Virus record (IMG/VR): IMGVR_UViG_2862035965_000001
Reading direction: 5' to 3' (one strand)
From: a virus
Taxonomy: Duplodnaviria; Heunggongvirae; Uroviricota; Caudoviricetes
Length of the DNA: 64,000 nucleotides
The position numbers and the translations under genes were made by a program. This document shows positions 18,781 through 58,845 of the stretch, piece after piece. The first letter of the stretch is position 1; every line of letters starts with the position of its first letter. Under the pieces are notes generated by a model, which had not been told where the DNA came from, made no database searches, and saw nothing but the letters and a program-made list of their open reading frames with translations.

Positions 18781-18803
18781 AATGCAGCACAGCTGCATTC
18801 GGG
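18781..18803 (+). promoter_or_regulatory. degenerate copy of the promoter-like motif (AATGCAGCACAGCTGCATTCGG)
   Basis: About 19 of 23 positions match the consensus. It is followed by two hairpins and no intact ORF until 19096, so it may be a decayed unit. Confidence 0.35.
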
Positions 18804-42797: not shown

Positions 42798-43538
42798 ATG
42801 TCCGCAGCTTTACCTCACACCGCAGCAGATCCCGTACACACCACCCCAGCGAAACCGCTGCTCGATCATGTCTTAGATTCACTGGGACGCAGCATCATCA
42901 GTGGTGAAATGGAAGCCGGTAGCACATTCAAACTGCAAGACATCGGTGAAAAATTCGGTATCTCCCGCACCGTCGCCAGAGAAGCTATGCGTGCCTTAGA
43001 GCAACTTGGGTTGGTGGCCTCATCGAGACGAATTGGTATTACAGTGCTCTCTCACGAGCACTGGGCTGTCTTTGACAAAGCCATTATTCGCTGGCGCCTC
43101 GAAGATGAGCGTCAACGTGAACAGCAACTGCAGTCACTCACCGAACTTCGTATTGCCATTGAACCAATTGCTGCACGCAGTGTTGCTCTTCATGCATCAA
43201 GCGCAGAGATTGCTATCATCAGTGATCTTGCTGCACGAATGCGTAACCTCGGTGAAGCTGGCCGTGGCGCATCACAAGAATTCCTAGACGCAGATGTGAA
43301 ATTTCATGAGCTTATTTTGCAGTATTGCCATAATGAGATGTTCGCTGCCATGGCACCGCCCATAAAGGCTGTACTAGTCGGACGCACCAAACTTGGCCTT
43401 CAACCCGATCGACCTGCCGAAGAGGTCTTGGACAATCATGATGCTCTCGCACACGCACTAAGTGTTCGTAATGCAGACCTCGCCGAAAAAGCATCCAGGA
43501 ACATTCTGAGTGAGGTGCGCGACGCACTGAGCTCGTAA
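42798..43538 (+). CDS. GntR/FadR-family transcriptional regulator
   Basis: N-terminal winged HTH (KLQDIGEKFGISRTVAREAMRALEQLGLV) and a C-terminal all-helical FCD-like domain. Confidence 0.75.
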   Translation: MSAALPHTAADPVHTTPAKPLLDHVLDSLGRSIISGEMEAGSTFKLQDIGEKFGISRTVAREAMRALEQLGLVASSRRIGITVLSHEHWAVFDKAIIRWRLEDERQREQQLQSLTELRIAIEPIAARSVALHASSAEIAIISDLAARMRNLGEAGRGASQEFLDADVKFHELILQYCHNEMFAAMAPPIKAVLVGRTKLGLQPDRPAEEVLDNHDALAHALSVRNADLAEKASRNILSEVRDALSS

Positions 43539-46989: not shown

Positions 46990-47892
46990 CTATTCTCCAC
47001 CCAACGCAGCCCGGAAATATGCTGTGAACATCTCCAGCATCATGATGACAAAGGGTGTTCCATCGCTGTAATTAAGCGGATTCTGCGTCACGGAAAAGGC
47101 TTTATAATACGTGCGCTCATTGCTGAATATGGCTTGGGACACCATCATGGCGCCAGCAGCAGAGAGACTTCTGCGCATTTGCACACTAAGCAGATAGCGA
47201 CCGAGCCGACCATTTCCATCATAAAAAGGATGAATCGCCTCGAATAAATAGTGACTCATCACCGCTGTGGCTATATCTTCTGCGCTACGACGGAGCTCTA
47301 ATTCGATAAAAGCATCCACACCAGTGATGATCTCTGACTCTGAGGAGAAGCCTGCATGGGCAACGTGGCCGGCACCTGTCACAACATGAACGGGGTGAGA
47401 TCTGAACAATTCCCCATCAAGTACAGCATCAGAATCCACTAATTCGCCCTGTGATTGACTGCCGGCAGTAGCGAAAAAGTCGTTATAAAGACCGCGCATC
47501 TGCTGCACGGAACCAGGAAATAATGCAGCAGCGCCGGCTGATGTCACCTCAAGTAAGCGCACATAGTAGCGATACATAGCCAACTCCGACAGCGCGGATG
47601 GGATGGCGACACCCTCAACACTGTTACTCGCAACGACTTCTGAGCCGGCGAGATCATGCAATTTCTGGGCTTTAAACTGCTGCGCCAGCTGTGTGTCGAG
47701 CTGCTGCAGCTCTGAAACTAGTACCTCGACCTCTGCATCAACGACACAAAACAGCGGAAAACCACGCACCAGCACGCCGGTATGAACTGAGTTCTCGTTA
47801 GTGAGCCGCTCACAATAAGTAGTTTCTAAGAGTTCCCGAGCCTGTGTGTGATGGGCTGCATGGAAAACTTTGCTTAACGGTCGATACTGCAT
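46990..47892 (-). CDS. Fic/Doc-family protein (AMPylase-type Fic domain)
   Basis: IHPFYDGNGRLGRYLLSVQMRR matches the canonical Fic motif HPFx[DE]GNGR. Confidence 0.8.
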   Translation of the reverse strand: MQYRPLSKVFHAAHHTQARELLETTYCERLTNENSVHTGVLVRGFPLFCVVDAEVEVLVSELQQLDTQLAQQFKAQKLHDLAGSEVVASNSVEGVAIPSALSELAMYRYYVRLLEVTSAGAAALFPGSVQQMRGLYNDFFATAGSQSQGELVDSDAVLDGELFRSHPVHVVTGAGHVAHAGFSSESEIITGVDAFIELELRRSAEDIATAVMSHYLFEAIHPFYDGNGRLGRYLLSVQMRRSLSAAGAMMVSQAIFSNERTYYKAFSVTQNPLNYSDGTPFVIMMLEMFTAYFRAALGGE

Positions 47893-47949
47893 AGTCCCTA
47901 TTGTCCCCTATTGGTCAATAACAAGGCGATTAGCTGGCAATTAAAAAGC

Positions 47950-49200
47950 ACCATAATCGACTACGGCAGGACTATTAAGTGTCAATTGAATAGTTCCGTA
48001 ACTGTCTTTTTAATAATCTCCAAGAATAAGCGCCTACAAAGACACAATTGTCTCGACAGTTAATCGTGCCGAAATGGGTTGTTAAAAGACAACGTACTAA
48101 ATGACCGCAACATAACTATTAAGTGTCAATTACAAAGGGCCATAGTAAACAGTTAATTGCGGTCCCCAACAAGTACTGAAATAAGTCGATTATATGTCAA
48201 TTGAATTGTTACTTAATAACACTCGCTACACACAGTAATCAGCAGGACTACTAAGTATCCATTATGTGTCAATTATCTGGAACCTTTAATGGCTTTGAAA
48301 AGGCACTATCCTATTGGCTCTTAGCGGTCGATTACATAGCAATTATATCAAGACTTTAAAGTAACTCATTCTACCGCACACTAAAAGGTCGATTAACTAA
48401 CAATTCAATTGATCGTTAAAAAGCCTTTATCTTTCGGATTGCGAGTAAATACTTAATCGACCTTTAATAGTGAGCTAATTGGCTTTTAAAGGCCAACACA
48501 TTGGATCATTTTTAAAAGGCTTTTAAGTGTCGATTAAATTGTCTTGTTACTGGCTTTCACAAGGCTCTTAAGAAACACTCCCCTATTGTCTTTTAATCGT
48601 CACTTAATCGACCTGTAAAAGTTAGTTAATTGACTCTTGAGTAACGACTATTTAATTGACCTTTAAGTAACGATTATGAGGTAATTATATTGATCGAATA
48701 GAGACACATAACTGACTACTCTTTATCTGACCATTACGAGGCTTTAAAAGAGCACTTAAGTGTCGATTAAGTGTCTACTCAATAACTGTCCATTATGAGG
48801 CTTTAAAAAGACAATTGAATCAACCGTTAATCGTCACTTAAATAACAATTAGCAATAGGCACTTTTAGAGCACCGTAAAAGCCATTTAATTGTCACGCAA
48901 TGAGCCCTTAAGTAACAATTAAATAAGTGGCTTTAAAAATACTGCTACGGCACGATTGAAAGACAATTAACGGTCAATTAAGTATCAATTAATTAATAGT
49001 GATTTAGAATACTCTTAGAGCACAATTTAATTGACAGCTAATAGACCTTTAAGTAACAATTACTTTATCTGCACTTTAAAGGCACGCTAAAAGCCTTTTA
49101 ATCGACATTTAATTGTCATAACGCTTCGGCACACCCAGGGAATACACTTAACGGTCGATTAAATGGATACTAAGTGACAATTAACCAGAGTCGCGTGGCA
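47950..49200. repeat. AT-rich non-coding array of short interspersed repeats (iteron or centromere-like)
   Basis: About 1.25 kb with no credible ORF. The motifs TTAAGTGTCAATT / AATTGACACTT (at least 10 copies), GTCGATTA / TAATCGAC (at least 10), GGCTTT(T)AAAAG (at least 8) and TAAGTAACAATTA (at least 4) occur in both orientations with irregular spacing. Confidence 0.6.
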
Positions 49201-49912
49201 GAGTTGCGACGAACAGTAGCGAATTATCACTACCCCCGTACCGCTGATATTTAACATTAAAACAACATTTACCCCATTTGTTTTGTTTAGTTTTAACGGA
49301 CTACTACCCCCGCCATTGTGGGACTGTGCAGCGGTATTTTCTACACTTATCAGACGTGAAGCAGGGCCCTGCAGCAGCCTGCAACGAGCATCCATTTCAA
49401 GCCGACAACGAGCTTGTAGAAACGCAGCTACAGCGGACACCAACGAGCCAGCAACGCATGATCTAGCGGCCTGAAACAGGCGCCCTGAGGCCCGCCACAA
49501 TGCCGCAACGATAGCCCGGAAAACTCCCCAACGGACTGTTGAGGGGATTAGCTTGAGACACCTAAAAGTGCCCCAGCGAACCTGCTATATCGGTTGGGGA
49601 ACCTACCGCAGCAGCCTCTCTCAAACACTTGAGAAAAACTCTGTAGCAAGCCTGCTTCACGCTCCGCAACAAGACCTCACAAGACTGCAACGGCTGCTAG
49701 AAAAAGCTCCCATAATTCCTCACAGCACCGTTTAAAACCCGCCACAGAGTTGCAGCAAACCCCTCAACAACACTGCTGCACACCGTCGCATCTCACAGCC
49801 CGCATCGACCCCAGAACCCTTTAAAAAGCTTCTATTCCGGGGTCTGTTAACAAGTCTCCACAGGGGCTGACAAAGCACTTATCAAGCCGCAACGTCTGCT
49901 TAATCTCCATCA

Positions 49913-49971
49913 CCGGTGTATTCCAGTGGGACCCTCGTTCTCGTGCCTCGAACCCCACTGAAATACACCGG
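49913..49971. repeat. 17-bp inverted repeat (CCGGTGTATTCCAGTGG ... CCACTGAAATACACCGG)
   Basis: Near-perfect arms with 1 mismatch, separated by 25 nt. Confidence 0.45.
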
Positions 49972-50016
49972 CGTCACCCTCGCTTCGCTCGTATACACAG
50001 CAGACCTCTCCTACCT

Positions 50017-50105
50017 GGGGAAATGCATAACTAAATACACGTGTATACGGCTAAAATCGGCAAAAAGCGCCCCCGAATACACGTGTATACGAACTCAATT
50101 TCCCC
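50017..50105. promoter_or_regulatory. symmetric double-operator element
   Basis: GGGGAAAT-n10-ATACACGTGTATACG-n27-ATACACGTGTATACG-n5-ATTTCCCC. Each 15-mer contains the 10-bp palindrome TACACGTGTA. Confidence 0.45.
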
Positions 50106-50159
50106 AGCTTAACAAGCATATTCACCCCTTTTCTGGTCGCTAAAGCTCCCGCCATAGGG

Positions 50160-51200
50160 GAAAAAGAATGAAAAGGGCATAAGGGGGTGTGACGCATTGA
50201 GCCTTTCGCTGCGCTCAATTCTCAATCCGATCGGCATAGCCGATACACCTGGTTTGCTGACGCAAACCCCCGTCCTTCGGACGGCCCTTATCACCCAGCT
50301 CACAAGTCAAAGAGGGGTCAGTTGCTTCGCTGCCTTTCCTCCCCTCTTCGCCTCCCGCTGTGTGCCCCTTCGGGGTGCCCCTTACAACCACCGATGTGGC
50401 TGGCGCCACGATCTTTTCGGTGGTTGTTATCCAAGCCCTTGTGCCACCAACCTGACTGCAGCTGTCGCTGCGTCATGTCTTCGGTTCGCTACGCTCACTG
50501 GTGTCACGGGCTTTCAAGACAGGCGTGCTGCGCGGCCCTCATAATCGGCTGTAGCGATTCTTCGTTGCCTGCTGCGCCCGCGACGCGCCCAAAAGCATTC
50601 ATCGCTGCACGGCTGCTGCTCCGTTCTCCGAACTCCCGCATCAGCTCGCGCAGTCCGTTGAGGGCGCGCTAAAAGATGAAAAGATCCTGCAACAAAAAGC
50701 GGTTGCAAAAAGATGAAGAGAAGCCTGCTACGAAACCTCTCGTTTCTGCGCAAACAATACGACTAACGCACGCTGAAAAACTCTCACAGCAACCACTGCG
50801 GTTTCTGCACTAAACCTCGTTATCAACGCAATAAAAAGATCCCCAAAATGCTAAAAACATAAGTTAAGTGATCACCCCTTTTAACACCGTATGGGGTAAT
50901 TAGGGTTCATTAATTACCCCCCACTTAATTTATGAAATTTCCATTTCTATCGGTACACGGTGTGTGGTGTGGGTACGTGGAAGAAGTCCGACTCAAGTCA
51001 AGCGCTTGCAACCTACGGTTGCCTCTCGCGCTTGTGCACGTGTGATGAGTGAGTCGCCTCTGTGGGCCGTGGTGTCCAAAAGCGATTCTCGGTTTCACCG
51101 ATCATCGCGCCAGGCGGCGCCTGGCCGGTTGAACAAGGGAATGGTGGGTGCGTCACCTTGCCGCCCGCTGGTGGGGGTTGTGAAAGAGAAACCACCCTGC
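50160..51200 (+). other. GC-rich non-coding segment rich in GC stems with UUCG tetraloops (candidate structured RNA; strand not established)
   Basis: CCGTCCTTCGGACGG, CCCCTTCGGGG, AACCACCGA...TCGGTGGTT and GTCTTCGG occur within 250 nt. The only ORFs are short, overlap in several frames and lack ribosome-binding sites. Confidence 0.3.
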
Positions 51201-51293
51201 TCCACATACACGCAAAAATTAACTTCTTTATTTAGTGAATAAACAACTAGTATTTTTAATGACTTACAAATATCAAGAAAGAATCTGTTCCTT

Positions 51294-52595
51294 ATGTCCA
51301 CATTGTCTAAGCCACGCAAGATCGCCACCAGCGTTGCTGTCGCGGCACTTACCCTCGCGTTGTGTAGTTCTGCCGCCGGCATTGTCCATGCAGCGCAACA
51401 AACTATCAGCGGTCCAAAATCCTCATGCGCTTTTAATCAACAACGTTGGGATGACAGCAAGCTCAAACTTGACGAAGCTATTAGTACAGCCAAAAACTCA
51501 CTCACACAGACTGGCGAGCTGCACCTCAACCAAACTGATCTACTTTCCGGCTACCTTTTTCAACAGCCCCACAGCAGTAACTACCTCGCACTCAACAATG
51601 CGTACGCCGATGCGGTGGCAACCAAAGACAGCTTTGTACGCCCGGAGTGTGATGGTTCCAAAGAATCCAAAATCGCCAGCGAACACGCCTTGTCTGAGAT
51701 CGTAAATGCTGCGAACACTCTTGCCCGTGCACAAAAATCACTTCAGGTAAATTCTGATACTTATGAGCAGCAACGCCGTTGTGACGCGCTTCGTCTAGCA
51801 AGCCGTGATGAGTCAGATGTCCTCATGCGTCTTGATCGCACCATGTTCCAGCTTCGTGGCACACTGACGGAAATTGATCAGATCACTACAGATATTCAAG
51901 ATATTCGGGCACAGACCGCCATCTTTGAACGTGATCTTGCCCGCGAGCAAAAAGAAGCAGATGCCGCAGCACGTGCACGTGATGCCAGCACCGTAGCCAC
52001 GCCAACCACAACCGCAGAGGATCGTGCCACCAGCATTCTTAAAAAGCCTCATACCAATCGCGGTGGTGACAGCTACACCCGGTCGTCAACGGCCAGCGCA
52101 CAAAGCACCGAATCGGATTCTGCAACCAACACCTCGTACCTGTCGCGCCGACTCGACAGTTTGGAGCGCAGTGCCCAGCATATTGATCTCGACACACCGT
52201 GCGACAACCTTGATGATCTTCGTGAACTCACCAGCAATGACACTCGTGATCGCACAGGTGCGGTGATTTCAATTGCGGACCAACTTAAAAACATCACAAA
52301 CGAAATTAACGAATTGCGAGAATCTACGATTGCAACCCGCGACAGTGCCCAGCACGCTCAAGATCAGGTCACCGCACAGCGCGAGGAGCTACAACGTGAA
52401 AAGGAAGCGCAGTTAGAAGATCAACGCCTAGCTCAAGAAGCTGAAGAAGAAGCTCGCAACGCGGTCATTCAGGAACGTGAAGCAGCCGAGGCAGCGCTAC
52501 GCGAGACACAAGAGCTTCTCAGTCGCCTGGATAATACCGACAACGCAGTCAATGATGACACAAGCGCAATTGCTGACAGTCTTCTCAATAACTAA
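51294..52595 (+). CDS. secreted/lipo-anchored coiled-coil protein
   Basis: 433 aa. Signal peptide with a possible lipobox (LTLALCSS). Almost entirely heptad-like, charged helical sequence. Confidence 0.55.
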   Translation: MSTLSKPRKIATSVAVAALTLALCSSAAGIVHAAQQTISGPKSSCAFNQQRWDDSKLKLDEAISTAKNSLTQTGELHLNQTDLLSGYLFQQPHSSNYLALNNAYADAVATKDSFVRPECDGSKESKIASEHALSEIVNAANTLARAQKSLQVNSDTYEQQRRCDALRLASRDESDVLMRLDRTMFQLRGTLTEIDQITTDIQDIRAQTAIFERDLAREQKEADAAARARDASTVATPTTTAEDRATSILKKPHTNRGGDSYTRSSTASAQSTESDSATNTSYLSRRLDSLERSAQHIDLDTPCDNLDDLRELTSNDTRDRTGAVISIADQLKNITNEINELRESTIATRDSAQHAQDQVTAQREELQREKEAQLEDQRLAQEAEEEARNAVIQEREAAEAALRETQELLSRLDNTDNAVNDDTSAIADSLLNN

Positions 52596-52713
52596 CAATC
52601 CTTATCACCGTCCACTGGGTGCACTCTAAAGTACCTGGTGGACGGTATGTTTTGCCCCAATACCCAAGTAAAATATATCTAGTACTATTTTACGATTGAA
52701 AGCAGATTCTACT

Positions 52714-54576
52714 ATGACCGTCGCCTCACCTACAGCGCTTGCCCTTAGTGACATGTCCTATATAGACATCATCAAAAGAAAACGCGGGTGGACTACTGAG
52801 TTTTTCCACAGCGCCATCAACACCGGGGAGATCACCCCACCGCTGCCTGACAGCGACCGTGCCACAGCAGTAATTCATGACCACATCACCAACACACGTG
52901 AAATCACCATCATCACTGACTTTGATATGGACGGTATTTCAGCCGGCGTCATCGCCTACGCAGGTCTTGCCGAACTTGGTGCGCAAGTCAATATGGTGGT
53001 GCCCGATTATCGCGGTGAACGCAATGTCACAGCCGACGATATTGACCATGCACTTGAGCTCTACCCTGCAACATCACTCATCATCACCTGCGATGTCGGA
53101 ATCGGCTCCCATGAAGGTATTGCTCGCGCACAGGAAAGCGGTGTCGCGATACTAGTCACAGATCACCACATGGAGGTCGAACCCTGCCAGGCCACTGTGG
53201 TACTTAACCCCAACCGAATTGGATCTGACTATCCAAATAAAGATATTTGTGGTGCGCAGGTCATCTTCGCCACATTGGGTGACTATGCGCGTCGTTATAG
53301 AGCCGACAAGATTATCGACATTAATTTACTCGCTGTCTTTGCCGGCATTGGTGCACTCGCCGATGTCATGCCCTTAACTCGTGATACTCGACCAACAGTG
53401 AAGCAGGCTATTGCGTTGCTTCGGCTTGCCATTCCACAGATAAGCAAAAATCGCTTCGGTGGCTGGGATATGTATGCTGCACGTTCTGTTGATCCTGATA
53501 CCTCCACGCTCATGCATATCGTCAACGCCAGCGCTCATGATCACCGATTCATGGCTGCGTTCCAAGGCATCTCAATTCTGCTCGGCGAACTGATTGCACA
53601 GAAAAAGTTGATCAGCATCGACAATATCTCTGAGTCTTTTATTGGCTTCACGCTCGGACCGATGTTTAATGCCACCCGCCGTGTCGGTGGTGACATGCAC
53701 GATTCATTTCTCGTGTTTGCACCCCATGCAGCACTTGCATCACAACCGTCGATGAATCCAAATCGTCGTGCTGCAATCAATCGCATCATTGATAACAACG
53801 AACGTCGCAAAGAGCTCTCCAAGTCCTCTTATGCTGCCGTACACAACACAGATCAACCCTACGCACCCTTTGTATGGCTCTCTGACGCACCAAGCGGCAT
53901 TCTCGGCCTTACTGCCTCACAGCTCACTCGTGAGTCTGGTGTGCCGGCCATTGTTATTAACCCAGACACCTTGTCTGGCTCGGCACGTTCACCTGAATGG
54001 GTACCGATCATCACCCAAGTAAACACCCTCGGCGCACAAGGTCACGGTGGCATTCATGCTGCAGGCCATGAACATGCCTGTGGTATGCGCTTTGATAGCC
54101 ATGATGATATTGCGGTCTTTGTCGCAGCCCTCGACCTACTCGATAAGAGCACGCCACGGGAAGCGCAGCTGGCAGATCTTCATCTAGTTGATATTGACCA
54201 TGCGCGTCCGGTTCTCGATAACCCTGCATTAGCTCACGCACTCAGCACAGTCGATGCCGCTGTAGATTCAGCACAGCTACTTGTACTTATTGATCAGCTT
54301 GATCAACTGCAGCCTTTTGGTCACGGTTTTGTCTACCCGCACATCGACGTGACCTTCAGGCCGGCAGAAGCCGAATTTAAAGTCATGGGTCAACATCACC
54401 AACATCTGAAGGTGATCACTCACTCAGGGCTCACTCTGTTGTGGTGGAATAAAGCCCAACAGCTCGATGAACTCGCACAATCCGAATTGGTCACTATGTC
54501 CGTGGAACTCGATGTCAATATGTTCCGTGGTTTTATCACACCACAAGGCATTGTCTCAGCGTGCACAGTCATCTAA
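52714..54576 (+). CDS. RecJ-like DHH-family phosphoesterase (ssDNA exonuclease-like)
   Basis: ITDFDMDGISAG (motif I), IITCDVGIG and VTDHHM (DHH motif). ATG at 52714; the annotated ORF uses a TTG at 52696. Confidence 0.7.
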   Translation: MTVASPTALALSDMSYIDIIKRKRGWTTEFFHSAINTGEITPPLPDSDRATAVIHDHITNTREITIITDFDMDGISAGVIAYAGLAELGAQVNMVVPDYRGERNVTADDIDHALELYPATSLIITCDVGIGSHEGIARAQESGVAILVTDHHMEVEPCQATVVLNPNRIGSDYPNKDICGAQVIFATLGDYARRYRADKIIDINLLAVFAGIGALADVMPLTRDTRPTVKQAIALLRLAIPQISKNRFGGWDMYAARSVDPDTSTLMHIVNASAHDHRFMAAFQGISILLGELIAQKKLISIDNISESFIGFTLGPMFNATRRVGGDMHDSFLVFAPHAALASQPSMNPNRRAAINRIIDNNERRKELSKSSYAAVHNTDQPYAPFVWLSDAPSGILGLTASQLTRESGVPAIVINPDTLSGSARSPEWVPIITQVNTLGAQGHGGIHAAGHEHACGMRFDSHDDIAVFVAALDLLDKSTPREAQLADLHLVDIDHARPVLDNPALAHALSTVDAAVDSAQLLVLIDQLDQLQPFGHGFVYPHIDVTFRPAEAEFKVMGQHHQHLKVITHSGLTLLWWNKAQQLDELAQSELVTMSVELDVNMFRGFITPQGIVSACTVI

Positions 54577-55989: not shown

Positions 55990-56600
55990 TATGAATTTAA
56001 TTATGAACGTAACGTTACAAACAGAAAGTATCGTTACACCTCAAAAACACACTATGACCTGCTGTAACGGTGAATCTGTAGCGCTACGGTGTAACGATAC
56101 GAAAAAGCTAAAGTTACACCCAAAAGCACCCTTTAACCTGCAACTATAGTCACAAAATTGTGGTTTGTAACGTTGTAACGATACTTTTGGAACTTTAATA
56201 TAGACAGAAGAGAAAGAGTAAGAACTCATAAACGTGAAATAGGACACATAAGTACTTAAAAGCACATATGAGCATCATGCTATGTCGTTTTACTACTTTT
56301 CACCATATGAACGTGCACATGAGCACTACCGCTCTGCACGGTGGTGATGATAGGTAAAAGCCATAACGGATTATTGCGATCCCTCGCGCGTATGTAAAAC
56401 ACGTCAAGTATCGTTACAACGTTACACTTTTGCATTCATGCAGGTCATAGTGTGTTTTTCATGTAACGTTGATGTAACGCTTATATTATTTTAATAATTA
56501 ACTTTAATATAATAAAAGGGTCTTTGACGTGCATCTTTGGTGCTGTAACGCTGTGTAGCGGAGTGTAACGATACGTAACGTTACGCTCGAATTAAATTCA
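55990..56600. repeat. iteron array (TGTAACGATAC / GTAACG repeats), origin-like, immediately upstream of the primase-helicase gene
   Basis: At least 12 GTAACG / CGTTAC cores. The longer form TGTAACGATAC occurs at about 56025 (reverse), 56090, 56172, 56410 (reverse) and 56567. AT-rich blocks are interspersed. Confidence 0.55.
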
Positions 56601-57078
56601 CGTTTGTGCAGTTTTTCAGCCGTCATCTCACCGTGTGAGACTACTGTCTCACAAATAGGCACCACTGCGGCACCCTCTAGATTGAATAAACCTATCAGTC
56701 TGCGTGCGTCTGCGGCCCCTAAAGCGCGCTCCTCACCCCTTTGCGTGCACGGCTATGGTTCGTACCGCTATCCATGCGTAACAACAGCTCTCCCCACCCA
56801 CTGCCTCTTACGCGCGCATACAACTGTGCGCTAAGTGCGCCTTAATAAACCGTTGAGTTTCTTTATTACTAAGCTTGTTTAAATTGAAAGTTCGCTATAT
56901 TCTGATTAAATAAAGTAAGTAATTTAGTAATTCGGCTCCACGGCCACCCGCACCGTTGTTCACCCACAGTGCACAAGAAAAAGCAACTCACTTCGTGCTT
57001 TTTTCACCGACCCCGGCTGTGTGGATGCCACCCACTTACACCGCACAATCGAAGACAAAAGTAAAGGATGTTCACCTT

Positions 57079-58845
57079 ATGTCTGACACCACAGACAACA
57101 ACGACCCAGCTACCTCACTTACAGTCGATAAAGTCGCGCCCGATACTTCTTCCTCTAGCAGCACCGCTGTGCAACCTAAGAAGAAATTCACCATCATTAA
57201 GCAAGTGAACATGATTGCGCGTACCGCTATTGATGACTGCATTAATCGACTAGGCCCAGATGTTGTCACCATGTCCAGCGAAGACATTGCTGACCGGGTG
57301 GTCAACTCCATTAACGTTGCTATTGCCAAGGAAAACGCACGCGCACAAGACGCCAAGGCTGCAGTGCGCTACACACCTATCTTTAAACTCGATTTCTCCC
57401 ACGTCGCCGTGCTCATGCGCAGACTGCATGTGATTATCAATATCGCACCATCCCATAACTCTGACCCCGACAGCGATATGTTGGCTATTTACGACCCCAA
57501 CCCCGCGAGTGAGCATTATGGGATCTATCGCACCTCAGAGGCTGAAATACGCCGCGTAGCGCGTGAATACTGCCCTGACCTCACCTCAGCGCAGTTTAGG
57601 GAATTGCTCATGGCTCTCTCCGATGCAGCGCCACGTAAAGTGCGCCACAAACAACGTGATTTGATTCCTGTGAAAAACGGCATCTTCAACTACTCAACCA
57701 AGCAACTAGAACCTTTTTCTCAAGAGTTTGTCTTTCTTGCTAAATCTGCCGTGAACTACAACCCAGCAGCAACCAACCCTGTCATTGTCCATCCCCAGGA
57801 CGGCTCTGTCTGGGATGTTGAATCATGGATGAACGATCTCTCTGATGATGAAGAGGTTGTCAACCTACTCTGGGAGATTATCGGCGCTATCGTGCGACCC
57901 TATGTGTCCTGGAATAAATCTGCCTGGTTCTATTCTGAGGCAGGAAACAACGGTAAAGGCACCTTGGTTGAGCTCATGCGCAACATTTTGGGTGCAGAAG
58001 CCTATACCAGCATTCAGCTCTCGGACTTCTCCAAAGAGTTCCATCTTGAATCATTGACGCGTGCGCAAGCAATTCTTGTTGATGAGAACGATGTCGGCGC
58101 ATTCTTGGAAAAGTCTGCGAACCTTAAAGCCATTGTCACCAATGACGTCATCTCCATTAACCGCAAGCACAAGACCATGCTCAGCTATCAGTTTTACGGC
58201 TTTATGGTGCAGTGTATTAACGGTTTCCCCAAGGTCAAAGACCAGTCTGAGTCATTTTTCAGGCGCCAACTCTTTGTCCCTTTTGAGAAAAGCTTCACCG
58301 GTGCCGAGCGCAAGTACATCAAAGACGACTACATGTCGCGTACAGATGTACTCGAATATGTTCTCCACCGCGTGCTGCATATGGACTACGACAATCTCTC
58401 CACCCCTGCAGCAGCTCTGGCTGTGCTCGATGAATACAAAGAATTTGTCGATCCTGTACGTGCATTCTGGAATGAATTCAATGATCAATTTGTCTGGGAT
58501 CTGCTGCCACTGCAATTTCTCTACGAGTTTTATCGCAAGTGGTTTGACCGCGACAGTCCATCCGGGTCTGTACTCGGTAAACGCAGCTTCATTCAGAAAA
58601 TCACGACCATCGCTGTTGATAGCGGTGAGTGGGAGTATCCACTCACCGCACAGCGTCCCGGTGGCGATATGGCTGTTCCTGAGCCATTAGTCATTGATTA
58701 CGACCTCACCGAGTGGCAAAACGCCCTGGTCGATAAACGACACCCAAACAAGGGCATTCCACTGCCACTCAAGGCTAATTATCGAGGGTTGCTGCGCAAA
58801 CAACCAGCTGCTCCCGCCGCCTCTCCTGCACCAACCACCCCTTAA
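57079..58845 (+). CDS. DNA primase/helicase, P4/D5 family (SF3 helicase C-terminal domain)
   Basis: Walker A in context (FYSEAGNNGKGTLVELMRN), Walker B (AILVDEND) and motif C (VTNDVISINRK), matching the phage/plasmid-primase P4-family C-terminal pattern. ATG at 57079. Confidence 0.7.
   Translation: MSDTTDNNDPATSLTVDKVAPDTSSSSSTAVQPKKKFTIIKQVNMIARTAIDDCINRLGPDVVTMSSEDIADRVVNSINVAIAKENARAQDAKAAVRYTPIFKLDFSHVAVLMRRLHVIINIAPSHNSDPDSDMLAIYDPNPASEHYGIYRTSEAEIRRVAREYCPDLTSAQFRELLMALSDAAPRKVRHKQRDLIPVKNGIFNYSTKQLEPFSQEFVFLAKSAVNYNPAATNPVIVHPQDGSVWDVESWMNDLSDDEEVVNLLWEIIGAIVRPYVSWNKSAWFYSEAGNNGKGTLVELMRNILGAEAYTSIQLSDFSKEFHLESLTRAQAILVDENDVGAFLEKSANLKAIVTNDVISINRKHKTMLSYQFYGFMVQCINGFPKVKDQSESFFRRQLFVPFEKSFTGAERKYIKDDYMSRTDVLEYVLHRVLHMDYDNLSTPAAALAVLDEYKEFVDPVRAFWNEFNDQFVWDLLPLQFLYEFYRKWFDRDSPSGSVLGKRSFIQKITTIAVDSGEWEYPLTAQRPGGDMAVPEPLVIDYDLTEWQNALVDKRHPNKGIPLPLKANYRGLLRKQPAAPAASPAPTTP

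Follow-up and report, generated by a model that had tools for sequence, protein, structure and literature searches.

A conserved module with a strand-specific fold in a gene-free gap of a CGP3-like prophage: a candidate large structured phage RNA

Results

The window analyzed here is a stretch of 64,000 nucleotides recorded as a Caudoviricetes virus (IMG/VR record IMGVR_UViG_2862035965_000001), and all coordinates refer to it; an exact-protein look-up assigns it to the Corynebacterium suranareeae chromosome (AP017369.1), where it lies within a CGP3-like prophage. Positions 47893 to 51293 form a 3.4-kb gap in which neither an open reading frame (ORF) scan nor the public annotation gives a credible gene, the nearest real genes being those at 47892 (Fic-domain protein) and at 51294. 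The gap holds the subject of this report, a conserved structured core of ∼636 nt at 49854–50489 on the minus strand (a putative RNA), delimited by the limits of homology. All the motifs singled out by a first-pass annotation also fall in the gap: a cluster of CAACG repeats, an inverted repeat, and two repeated palindromes nested in an outer dyad, which together had been taken for a repressor or initiator control region.

Gene order around the gap is that of CGP3, with a gene for a secreted protein (cg1955), recJ (cg1956), and, downstream, a gene for a priP-type D5 primase-helicase; the RecJ-like protein of the window (52696–54576) falls into one cluster with the cg1956 product of strain ATCC 13032 of C. 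glutamicum. The gap is present in C. glutamicum too, where the sole annotated gene inside it is cg1954 (71 aa). We compared the homologous gaps of C. glutamicum (L003) and of four other CGP3-type assemblies (L007, L017, L038, and L040). BLAST of 47800–51400 against plasmid and phage collections returned no match, and nothing could be confirmed when genomes representative of species were scanned with the 433-aa neighboring protein as seed. The literature that could be searched holds no description of the 3.4-kb gene-free region and, except for two short small RNAs (sRNAs) of the neighboring repeat array, no account of cg1954, cg1955, cgb_195x, or an RNA of the locus.

The inverted repeat, the two repeats, and the outer dyad are all present where the first-pass annotation had placed them. 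The arms of the inverted repeat lie at 49911–49937 and 49947–49973 and, in the plus-strand reading, match over 18 bp with one mismatch. The repeats are identical 16-mers, AATACACGTGTATACG, at 50034–50049 and 50076–50091 (family D18), each containing the palindrome ATACACGTGTAT, and around both of them stands the dyad GGGGAAAT (50017–50024) and ATTTCCCC (50098–50105). The palindromes are 42 bp apart from center to center, a spacing that is invariant in seven lineages, and their center, ACGT, is itself palindromic and almost invariant. No further copy was found in the window at two or fewer mismatches. Conservation in related elements, which the first-pass annotation had proposed as a check on the dyads, was borne out: seven Corynebacterium lineages keep the inverted repeat, the outer dyad, and the palindromes inside it, all of which belong to the most conserved segment of the locus.

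In an identity profile over 7.7 kb, positions 49900–50700 share 90–98% identity with L007 and C. glutamicum, as against 72–92% for the flanking Fic, secreted-protein, and recJ genes and 61–68% for other non-coding DNA, and the core is the best-conserved stretch of the region. The same segment was found in C. pacaense (L013) by a DNA pattern scan and in contig L020 by a metagenome scan. In both, homology starts and stops sharply, at ∼49854 and at ∼50488–50489, and the flanks are unrelated, C. pacaense retaining the module without the neighboring genes of the window. The window, like each of the loci, carries one copy. Assembly L038 (Logan SRR9924474) shares 99% identity with the window to either side of the core and only 87–91% within it (49900–50500), where it resembles the C. 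pacaense type, a pattern that points to a recent recombinational replacement of the module alone. Because the L038 core differs in type from its own flanks, and because the flanks in C. pacaense and L020 are unrelated, the core behaves as an exchangeable unit. Three exact core patterns had no match among the IMG/VR viral contigs, and an nhmmer comparison detected no core similarity in L011, a prophage that is less closely related but shares the RecJ and primase genes.

Next to the core, at 50490–50745, is an extension with 90–94% identity among the CGP3-type loci that is absent from C. pacaense. It may represent a promoter region or a 5′ domain. By a consensus scan only, its minus strand has two terminator-like hairpins (50741–50718 and 50710–50685) and its plus strand a promoter-like site (50516–50545).

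The core is non-coding. Substitutions show no third-position excess in any of the overlapping ORFs, and there are three indels of 1 nt; without codon periodicity and with these indels, coding potential of the overlapping ORFs was rejected. The annotated C. glutamicum gene cg1954 (BX927147; window 50215–50409, minus strand) sits inside the structured core, and because it has no coding signature it is probably a spurious gene call.

The core folds much better than its dinucleotide shuffles, with z = −8.3 on the minus strand and −9.5 on the plus strand. Covariation was assessed on a set of five to seven distinct sequences with a minus-strand consensus structure of 203 pairs. Standard pairs occupy 98.5% of its pair cells, and double changes affect 12 pairs. 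The observed values were reached in 0 of 500 column shuffles, and sliding the 3′ partners left 42–45% of cells paired and 0–2 double-changed pairs. Among the variable pairs there are 24 G-U against 5 A-C in the minus-strand structure, as opposed to 9 G-U against 15 A-C in the best structure of the plus strand itself; the consensus energies are −255 and −211 kcal/mol, respectively, the plus strand being ∼45 kcal/mol worse. Because the wobble ratio reverses and the energy is worse on the plus strand, the folded strand is the minus strand of the window.

Covariation is clearest in the hairpin formed by H3 and H4 (50382–50429, minus strand). In C. pacaense, its ACAACCACC/GGTGGTTGT pairing changes to CCCGGAAGC/GCTTCCGGG, with six pairs changed on both sides, and the inner stem of the same hairpin changes from GTGGC/GCCAC to GCGGC/GCCGC. 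The 5′-terminal hairpin of the core, H1 (50449–50479, minus strand), has 12 pairs that are 100% paired and include one compensatory change (A-U, C-G, G-U). The 5′ half of the C. pacaense core is a GC-rich island (64% GC, against 36–50% in its flanks), the opposite of what would be expected of an unwinding element.

The dyads take their places in this structure as stems. The inverted repeat is the long minus-strand hairpin H22 (49911–49973), of 24–25 bp when G-U pairs are included. In it 21 of 25 pairs are invariant, and changes in the remaining four are one-sided; with a single exception, the changed cells are G-U or U-G wobbles on the minus strand, and would be A-C mismatches on the plus strand. 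Its 5′ arm, GTGACGCCGGT.TGT, is also kept in two distant phage loci (L018 and L019, described below). The GGGGAAAT/ATTTCCCC dyad belongs to helix H18 (arms 50004–50024 and 50098–50117), which closes a minus-strand domain at 50004–50117 enclosing both palindromes; its 17 pairs are paired in 98.8% of cells. The 3′ arm of H18, CATTTCCCCAGGT, recurs in L019, and the opposite arm has changed to GGGTGAACAC in L040.

The two palindromes, at 50034–50049 (B) and 50076–50091 (A), are the copies that had been read as operators, and each is modeled as a short minus-strand hairpin with an ACGU loop. In C. pacaense-type copies, palindrome B becomes TATCTACGTAGATA through two compensatory pair changes, and palindrome A becomes a perfect 18-nt palindrome, CATATATACGTATATATG, through a compensatory change from C-G to U-A. 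B has a U-G wobble in L003, L007, and L038, and the loop of A reads ATGT in L040. In C. pacaense, copies A and B thus differ at symmetric positions while each is still self-complementary, as both are in every lineage despite the change in sequence. The first RNAalifold proposal had paired A with B; this pairing was rejected, since of 16 positions it joins 14–15 elsewhere but only 13 in the C. pacaense type, where A and B are each still perfectly palindromic, so that two local ACGU-loop hairpins fit better.

At 50165–50302 (minus strand) the core is modeled as a three-way-junction domain with the hairpins P2 (ATCGGCTATGCCGAT) and P3. It contains an invariant 26-nt block, GCGTCACACCCCCTTATGCCCTT in the minus-strand reading (50170–50196), which pairs with GGGTGATAAGGG...GGTGT, and positions 50173–50272 have no variable column in four lineages. 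A metagenome scan recovered the 26-nt block in identical form from distant phage loci (L018, L019/L021, and L022), whose contigs carry endolysin, primase/helicase, and HNH genes and which also share the hairpin CGGCTATGCCG with the core; these distant copies differ by large insertions. The viral contig L023 has a minimal version of 90 nt, in which the same helix closes a three-way junction. Between the groups, P2 shows covariation (A-U, C-G, G-C; U-A, C-G). The invariant strand CACCCCCUUAU may resemble the 3′ tail of 16S rRNA (CACCUCCUUUC), and its partner a Shine-Dalgarno sequence.

A relaxed gapped pattern, GGTGT...ACACCCCCTTATG, matched 15 loci in IMG/VR, and all but L023 look unrelated; in the L024 group the match consists of a ribosome-binding site and a GTG gene start. 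Within the core, read on the minus strand, the heptamer GCGUCAC of the junction block (50189–50195) has its exact complement, GUGACGC, where hairpin H22 begins on its 5′ side (49971–49977). L018 and L019 retain both heptamers and L022 retains them in part, and they are a candidate for a long-range or alternative pairing.

No Rfam 15 model matched the window at its gathering score. Searches of 47800–51400 at E up to 10, and of six loci (L013 and L018–L022) at E up to 1, gave chance-level unrelated matches only.

Along the folded strand, a divergent spacer of ∼500 nt, two CGGGGGTA boxes, and a repeat array come after the core. The boxes (49231–49238 and 49305–49312) are 74 nt apart, flank an AT-rich segment within a minus-strand module at 49225–49320, and are the only two copies of CGGGGGTA in the window. 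L007 and C. pacaense (L013: 5591 and 5657) likewise have such a pair, 66–74 nt apart and ∼500 nt beyond the core, and a short stretch between the boxes, TTGTTTTAAT-GTTAAAT, is shared.

The array at 47900–49200 is AT-rich (34% GC) and consists of ∼20 copies, lying in either direction, of a dyad-like 13-bp site, TTAANNNNCRATT; the window has 21 matches to this site, 20 of them inside the array and one in the other 62.6 kb. Arrays are also present in L003, L007, L038, and L040. C. pacaense has, at the same relative position, a homologous and clean tandem array of 70 nt × 6.3 (L013:5681–6119) that shares TCGTCACTTAATCGACC and ACGAGGCTTT; an ORF of 125 aa after it looks spurious and is unrelated to Fic. 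The array could be a centromere, an iteron field, or a field for nucleation of CgpS. The strongest CgpS ChAP-seq signals are at the adjoining cg1950–cg1951 (PMC5137423), and the C. glutamicum array gives rise to two short sigma-A-dependent sRNAs from the minus strand, cgb_19513 and cgb_19516 (PMC4046766, supplement 4).

Another group of repeats lies further along the window: GTATCGTTACA occurs in five copies, in both orientations, at 56028–56564, within a 1.5-kb intergenic region of 42–46% GC directly upstream of the D5-type primase-helicase gene (56956–58845). This iteron-like cluster is an alternative candidate for the origin.

The CAACG cluster stands apart from the conserved element. The first-pass annotation had counted at least eight copies between 49380 and 49890 where about one would be expected, and this count is correct (49382, 49406, 49441, 49452, 49506, 49529, 49688, and 49890; expectation ∼1.0 from local composition or from the window-wide density of 2.06 per kb). 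The extended form CAACGAGC has 3 copies inside 60 nt. As a pre-chosen 5-mer, CAACG reached at least 7 copies in none of 2000 Markov simulations; because some 5-mer did so in 15% of them, the enrichment is weak when judged after the fact. Seven of the eight copies (49382–49688) are in the fast-evolving spacer at 49321–49853, which is 61–66% identical to L007, and the eighth, at 49890, is inside the conserved core. C. glutamicum keeps 7 of the 8 copies and L007 none, so the cluster is probably not functional.

The first-pass annotation had also linked the cluster to a regulon promoter motif, which is probably the ∼24-nt motif CAACGACAGCACAGCTGCGTTCGG. We found this motif 6–7 times upstream of plus-strand genes (9454, 10166, 11573, 14827, 16743, and 41814, with partial copies at 18785, 20432, and 39582), and most copies are close to gene starts. 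It is able to form a small hairpin (AACG-A-CAGC/GCUG-CGUU) and may serve as a promoter of the phage or as a signal for processing or translation. The two do share the hexamer CAACGA; because this common hexamer is all that they share, and because it occurs 49 times in the window, mostly within genes, the link is probably coincidental.

On the other side of the array, the Fic-domain protein (46990–47892, minus strand) matches the PADLOC model SoFic, which describes a Fic-type anti-phage defense protein, with E = 7e-18, and its gene is probably a prophage-borne defense gene. C. glutamicum ATCC 13032 has an insertion sequence (IS) element in place of the Fic gene. ARAGORN detected no tRNA or tmRNA gene in the window.

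Discussion

Our study shows that the dyads of this prophage are parts of a 636-nt module that is better conserved than the genes beside it and whose stems evolve as those of a folded minus strand. Because sequence change in the module is paired, and wobble-compatible on one strand, it probably functions as a folded single strand and not as a set of double-stranded protein sites. We therefore retain from the earlier interpretation the view that the ordered dyad architecture is non-random and functional, and set aside the view that it is an operator region, as its arms covary in the manner of stems. The interpretation that we favor, with somewhat more confidence than doubt, is that 49854–50489 encodes on its minus strand a new large structured non-coding phage RNA of which the dyads are helices. 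It would be a candidate new RNA family of a known kind, unmatched by the models for GOLLD, ROOL, OLE, HEARO, and raiA or by any other in Rfam 15.

Under this interpretation the minus strand of the core would be expressed as an RNA whose two ends, 5′ and 3′, would pair to close a multi-domain fold. Within the outer-dyad helix, each palindrome would fold into a short hairpin, and the ACGU loops of the two would be identical and self-complementary. It is possible, at a confidence clearly short of even, that the module is the founding member of a class of large phage RNAs built on a junction with an invariant helix (UAAGGGGGUGU/ACACCCCCUUA plus GGGC/GCCC), spread over Corynebacterium prophages and unrelated phages of actinobacterial type, and either assembling through its ACGU loops into a higher-order RNA particle, like ROOL and GOLLD, or serving as the primer or R-loop RNA of a CGP3 origin at the adjacent repeat array. 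More tentative still, and on balance rather doubtful, is the proposal that it acts in the lytic or replicative phase, whether as a self-contained scaffold RNA of the kind proposed for ROOL and GOLLD or as an origin primer or R-loop RNA directed toward the AT-rich array.

Several observations weigh against a structured RNA. In published transcriptomes of C. glutamicum, obtained without induction, cg1954 has no start site and is marked as having “insufficient coverage”, as expected because the prophage is silenced, and cg1954 is missing from the genes listed as induced with the prophage. The minus strand yielded neither a conserved promoter nor an intrinsic terminator that was convincing, and no promoter common to CGP3-type and C. 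pacaense-type loci was found upstream of the core. The compensatory changes support local hairpins only, with little covariation in the long-range helices, and the sample comprises only seven fairly close and four distant sequences. The closing helix of the junction, P1, is conserved in sequence without covarying, so recognition as double-stranded DNA is possible there; likewise, both palindromes are perfect as DNA, center included, at an invariant spacing. Lastly, G-T wobbles are tolerated in hairpins of single-stranded DNA (ssDNA), and strand asymmetry therefore cannot separate RNA from ssDNA.

The main alternative is a cis-acting DNA function, in which the core would be part of the prophage replication origin, its unwound hairpins serving as an ssDNA entry or priming site and the array providing iterons and an unwinding region. 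The hairpins of RSF1010 ssiA/ssiB and the minus origin of filamentous phages are models for such an element. Several features favor it: the composite order of core, spacer, CGGGGGTA boxes, and array is common to CGP3-type and C. pacaense loci; short dyad-repeat clusters are seen by eye beside the junction in L019 and L022; the setting is that of a replication module, with a RecJ-like gene and a D5-type primase-helicase in the window and a primase/helicase gene beside L021; and the sequence-conserved, non-covarying inverted repeat of P1 would suit protein or DNA recognition. ssDNA hairpins would also accommodate the wobbles. However, a GC-rich, near-invariant, fully paired core of 636 nt fits less well by size, and to our knowledge far exceeds any known ssDNA initiation signal. 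Furthermore, C. pacaense carries the module beside different genes, and the GTATCGTTACA cluster upstream of the primase gene is an equally good candidate for the origin. CGP3 itself replicates in situ from an origin that is unmapped, which is compatible with an origin here (PMC6173762). On these grounds we regard an origin element as unlikely, if still a serious alternative to the RNA.

The earlier proposal, that the inverted repeat and the palindromes are sites for a dimeric repressor or initiator (for example the GntR regulator at 42798–43538 or a helix-turn-helix (HTH) protein of the resolvase kind) in a lysogeny or copy-control switch, is the least supported and in our judgment improbable. 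What speaks for it is the geometry of the sites, which are identical perfect palindromes with a nearly invariant ACGT center, held at four helical turns (42 bp), nested in an outer dyad, and conserved in related elements; because of this center and spacing, protein binding to the double-stranded palindromes may still occur. But the arms change by compensatory substitution, and the C. pacaense copies have diverged from each other with each remaining self-complementary, while one-sided changes are wobble-compatible on a single strand only. The sites do not recur elsewhere in the window, and the 636 nt around them are paired and conserved to the same degree, which operators would not explain. There is neither a regulator gene nor a promoter within ∼1 kb (nor is there a promoter-like site over 49900–50110), and the C. 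pacaense module lacks the neighbor genes of the window. Finally, the module might be a decayed or unannotated coding gene, or a small mobile element such as a miniature inverted-repeat transposable element (MITE) or an IS remnant, with the dyads as its terminal or internal repeats. Short ORFs of 64–116 aa do cover the core (one of them is cg1954 in C. glutamicum), and the sharp homology limits and two gene contexts would suit a mobile unit. Against a gene stand the lack of third-position bias, the 1-nt indels, and the occurrence of the invariant block in different reading frames among distant homologs; against a mobile element stand the single copy per locus and window and boundaries at which no terminal inverted repeats or target duplications are seen by eye. 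Against both stands the conservation of the module, which exceeds that of the adjacent real genes, and we consider both very improbable.

CGP3 is the model cryptic prophage of industrial C. glutamicum, and active research is directed at how CgpS silences it, how it is induced, and how it replicates in situ. A module that is more conserved than its neighboring genes, and is exchanged as a unit, is a concrete candidate there for a functional RNA or an origin element. Large structured phage RNAs are few, and a member in a tractable host with an inducible prophage would make the question of their function experimentally accessible.

Among known systems, phage operators such as lambda OR/OL and the iterons of copy control resemble the module in having repeated dyad sites in helical phase (here 42 bp) within a non-coding region, in this case of a prophage. 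They differ from it in that the module has no adjacent regulator gene or promoter, its sites do not recur, and its arms covary like stems. Origin RNAs and ssDNA initiation sites (ColE1 RNA II, the R-loop origins of T4, and RSF1010 ssiA/ssiB with its iterons) are closer in plan: like them, the module is a strand-specific folded element upstream of AT-rich repeats in a replication gene setting, and its RNA strand would be G-rich. It is, however, not homologous to these systems in sequence or structure, ∼650 nt separate the core from the array, the module also occurs beside unrelated genes, and the CGP3 origin is unmapped. The array that would answer to the iterons, with its ∼20 sites and 34% GC at 47900–49200, is outside the module, and the core itself is GC-rich.

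From ROOL (RF03087) and GOLLD (RF01998) the module is distinguished by the lack of any matching Rfam model and by its hosts, which are Corynebacterium and other phages of 46–56% GC. ROOL and GOLLD are often near tRNA islands, whereas no tRNA gene accompanies the module in the window. In other respects they are its closest analogs in kind: all are multi-helix, non-coding elements of ∼600–800 nt, borne by prophages or phages, made of universally conserved and variable parts, and with no known function. In ROOL and GOLLD, assembly is mediated by kissing loops (PMC12286853), and in the module the two modeled hairpins, with their identical self-complementary ACGU loops, may be the counterpart.

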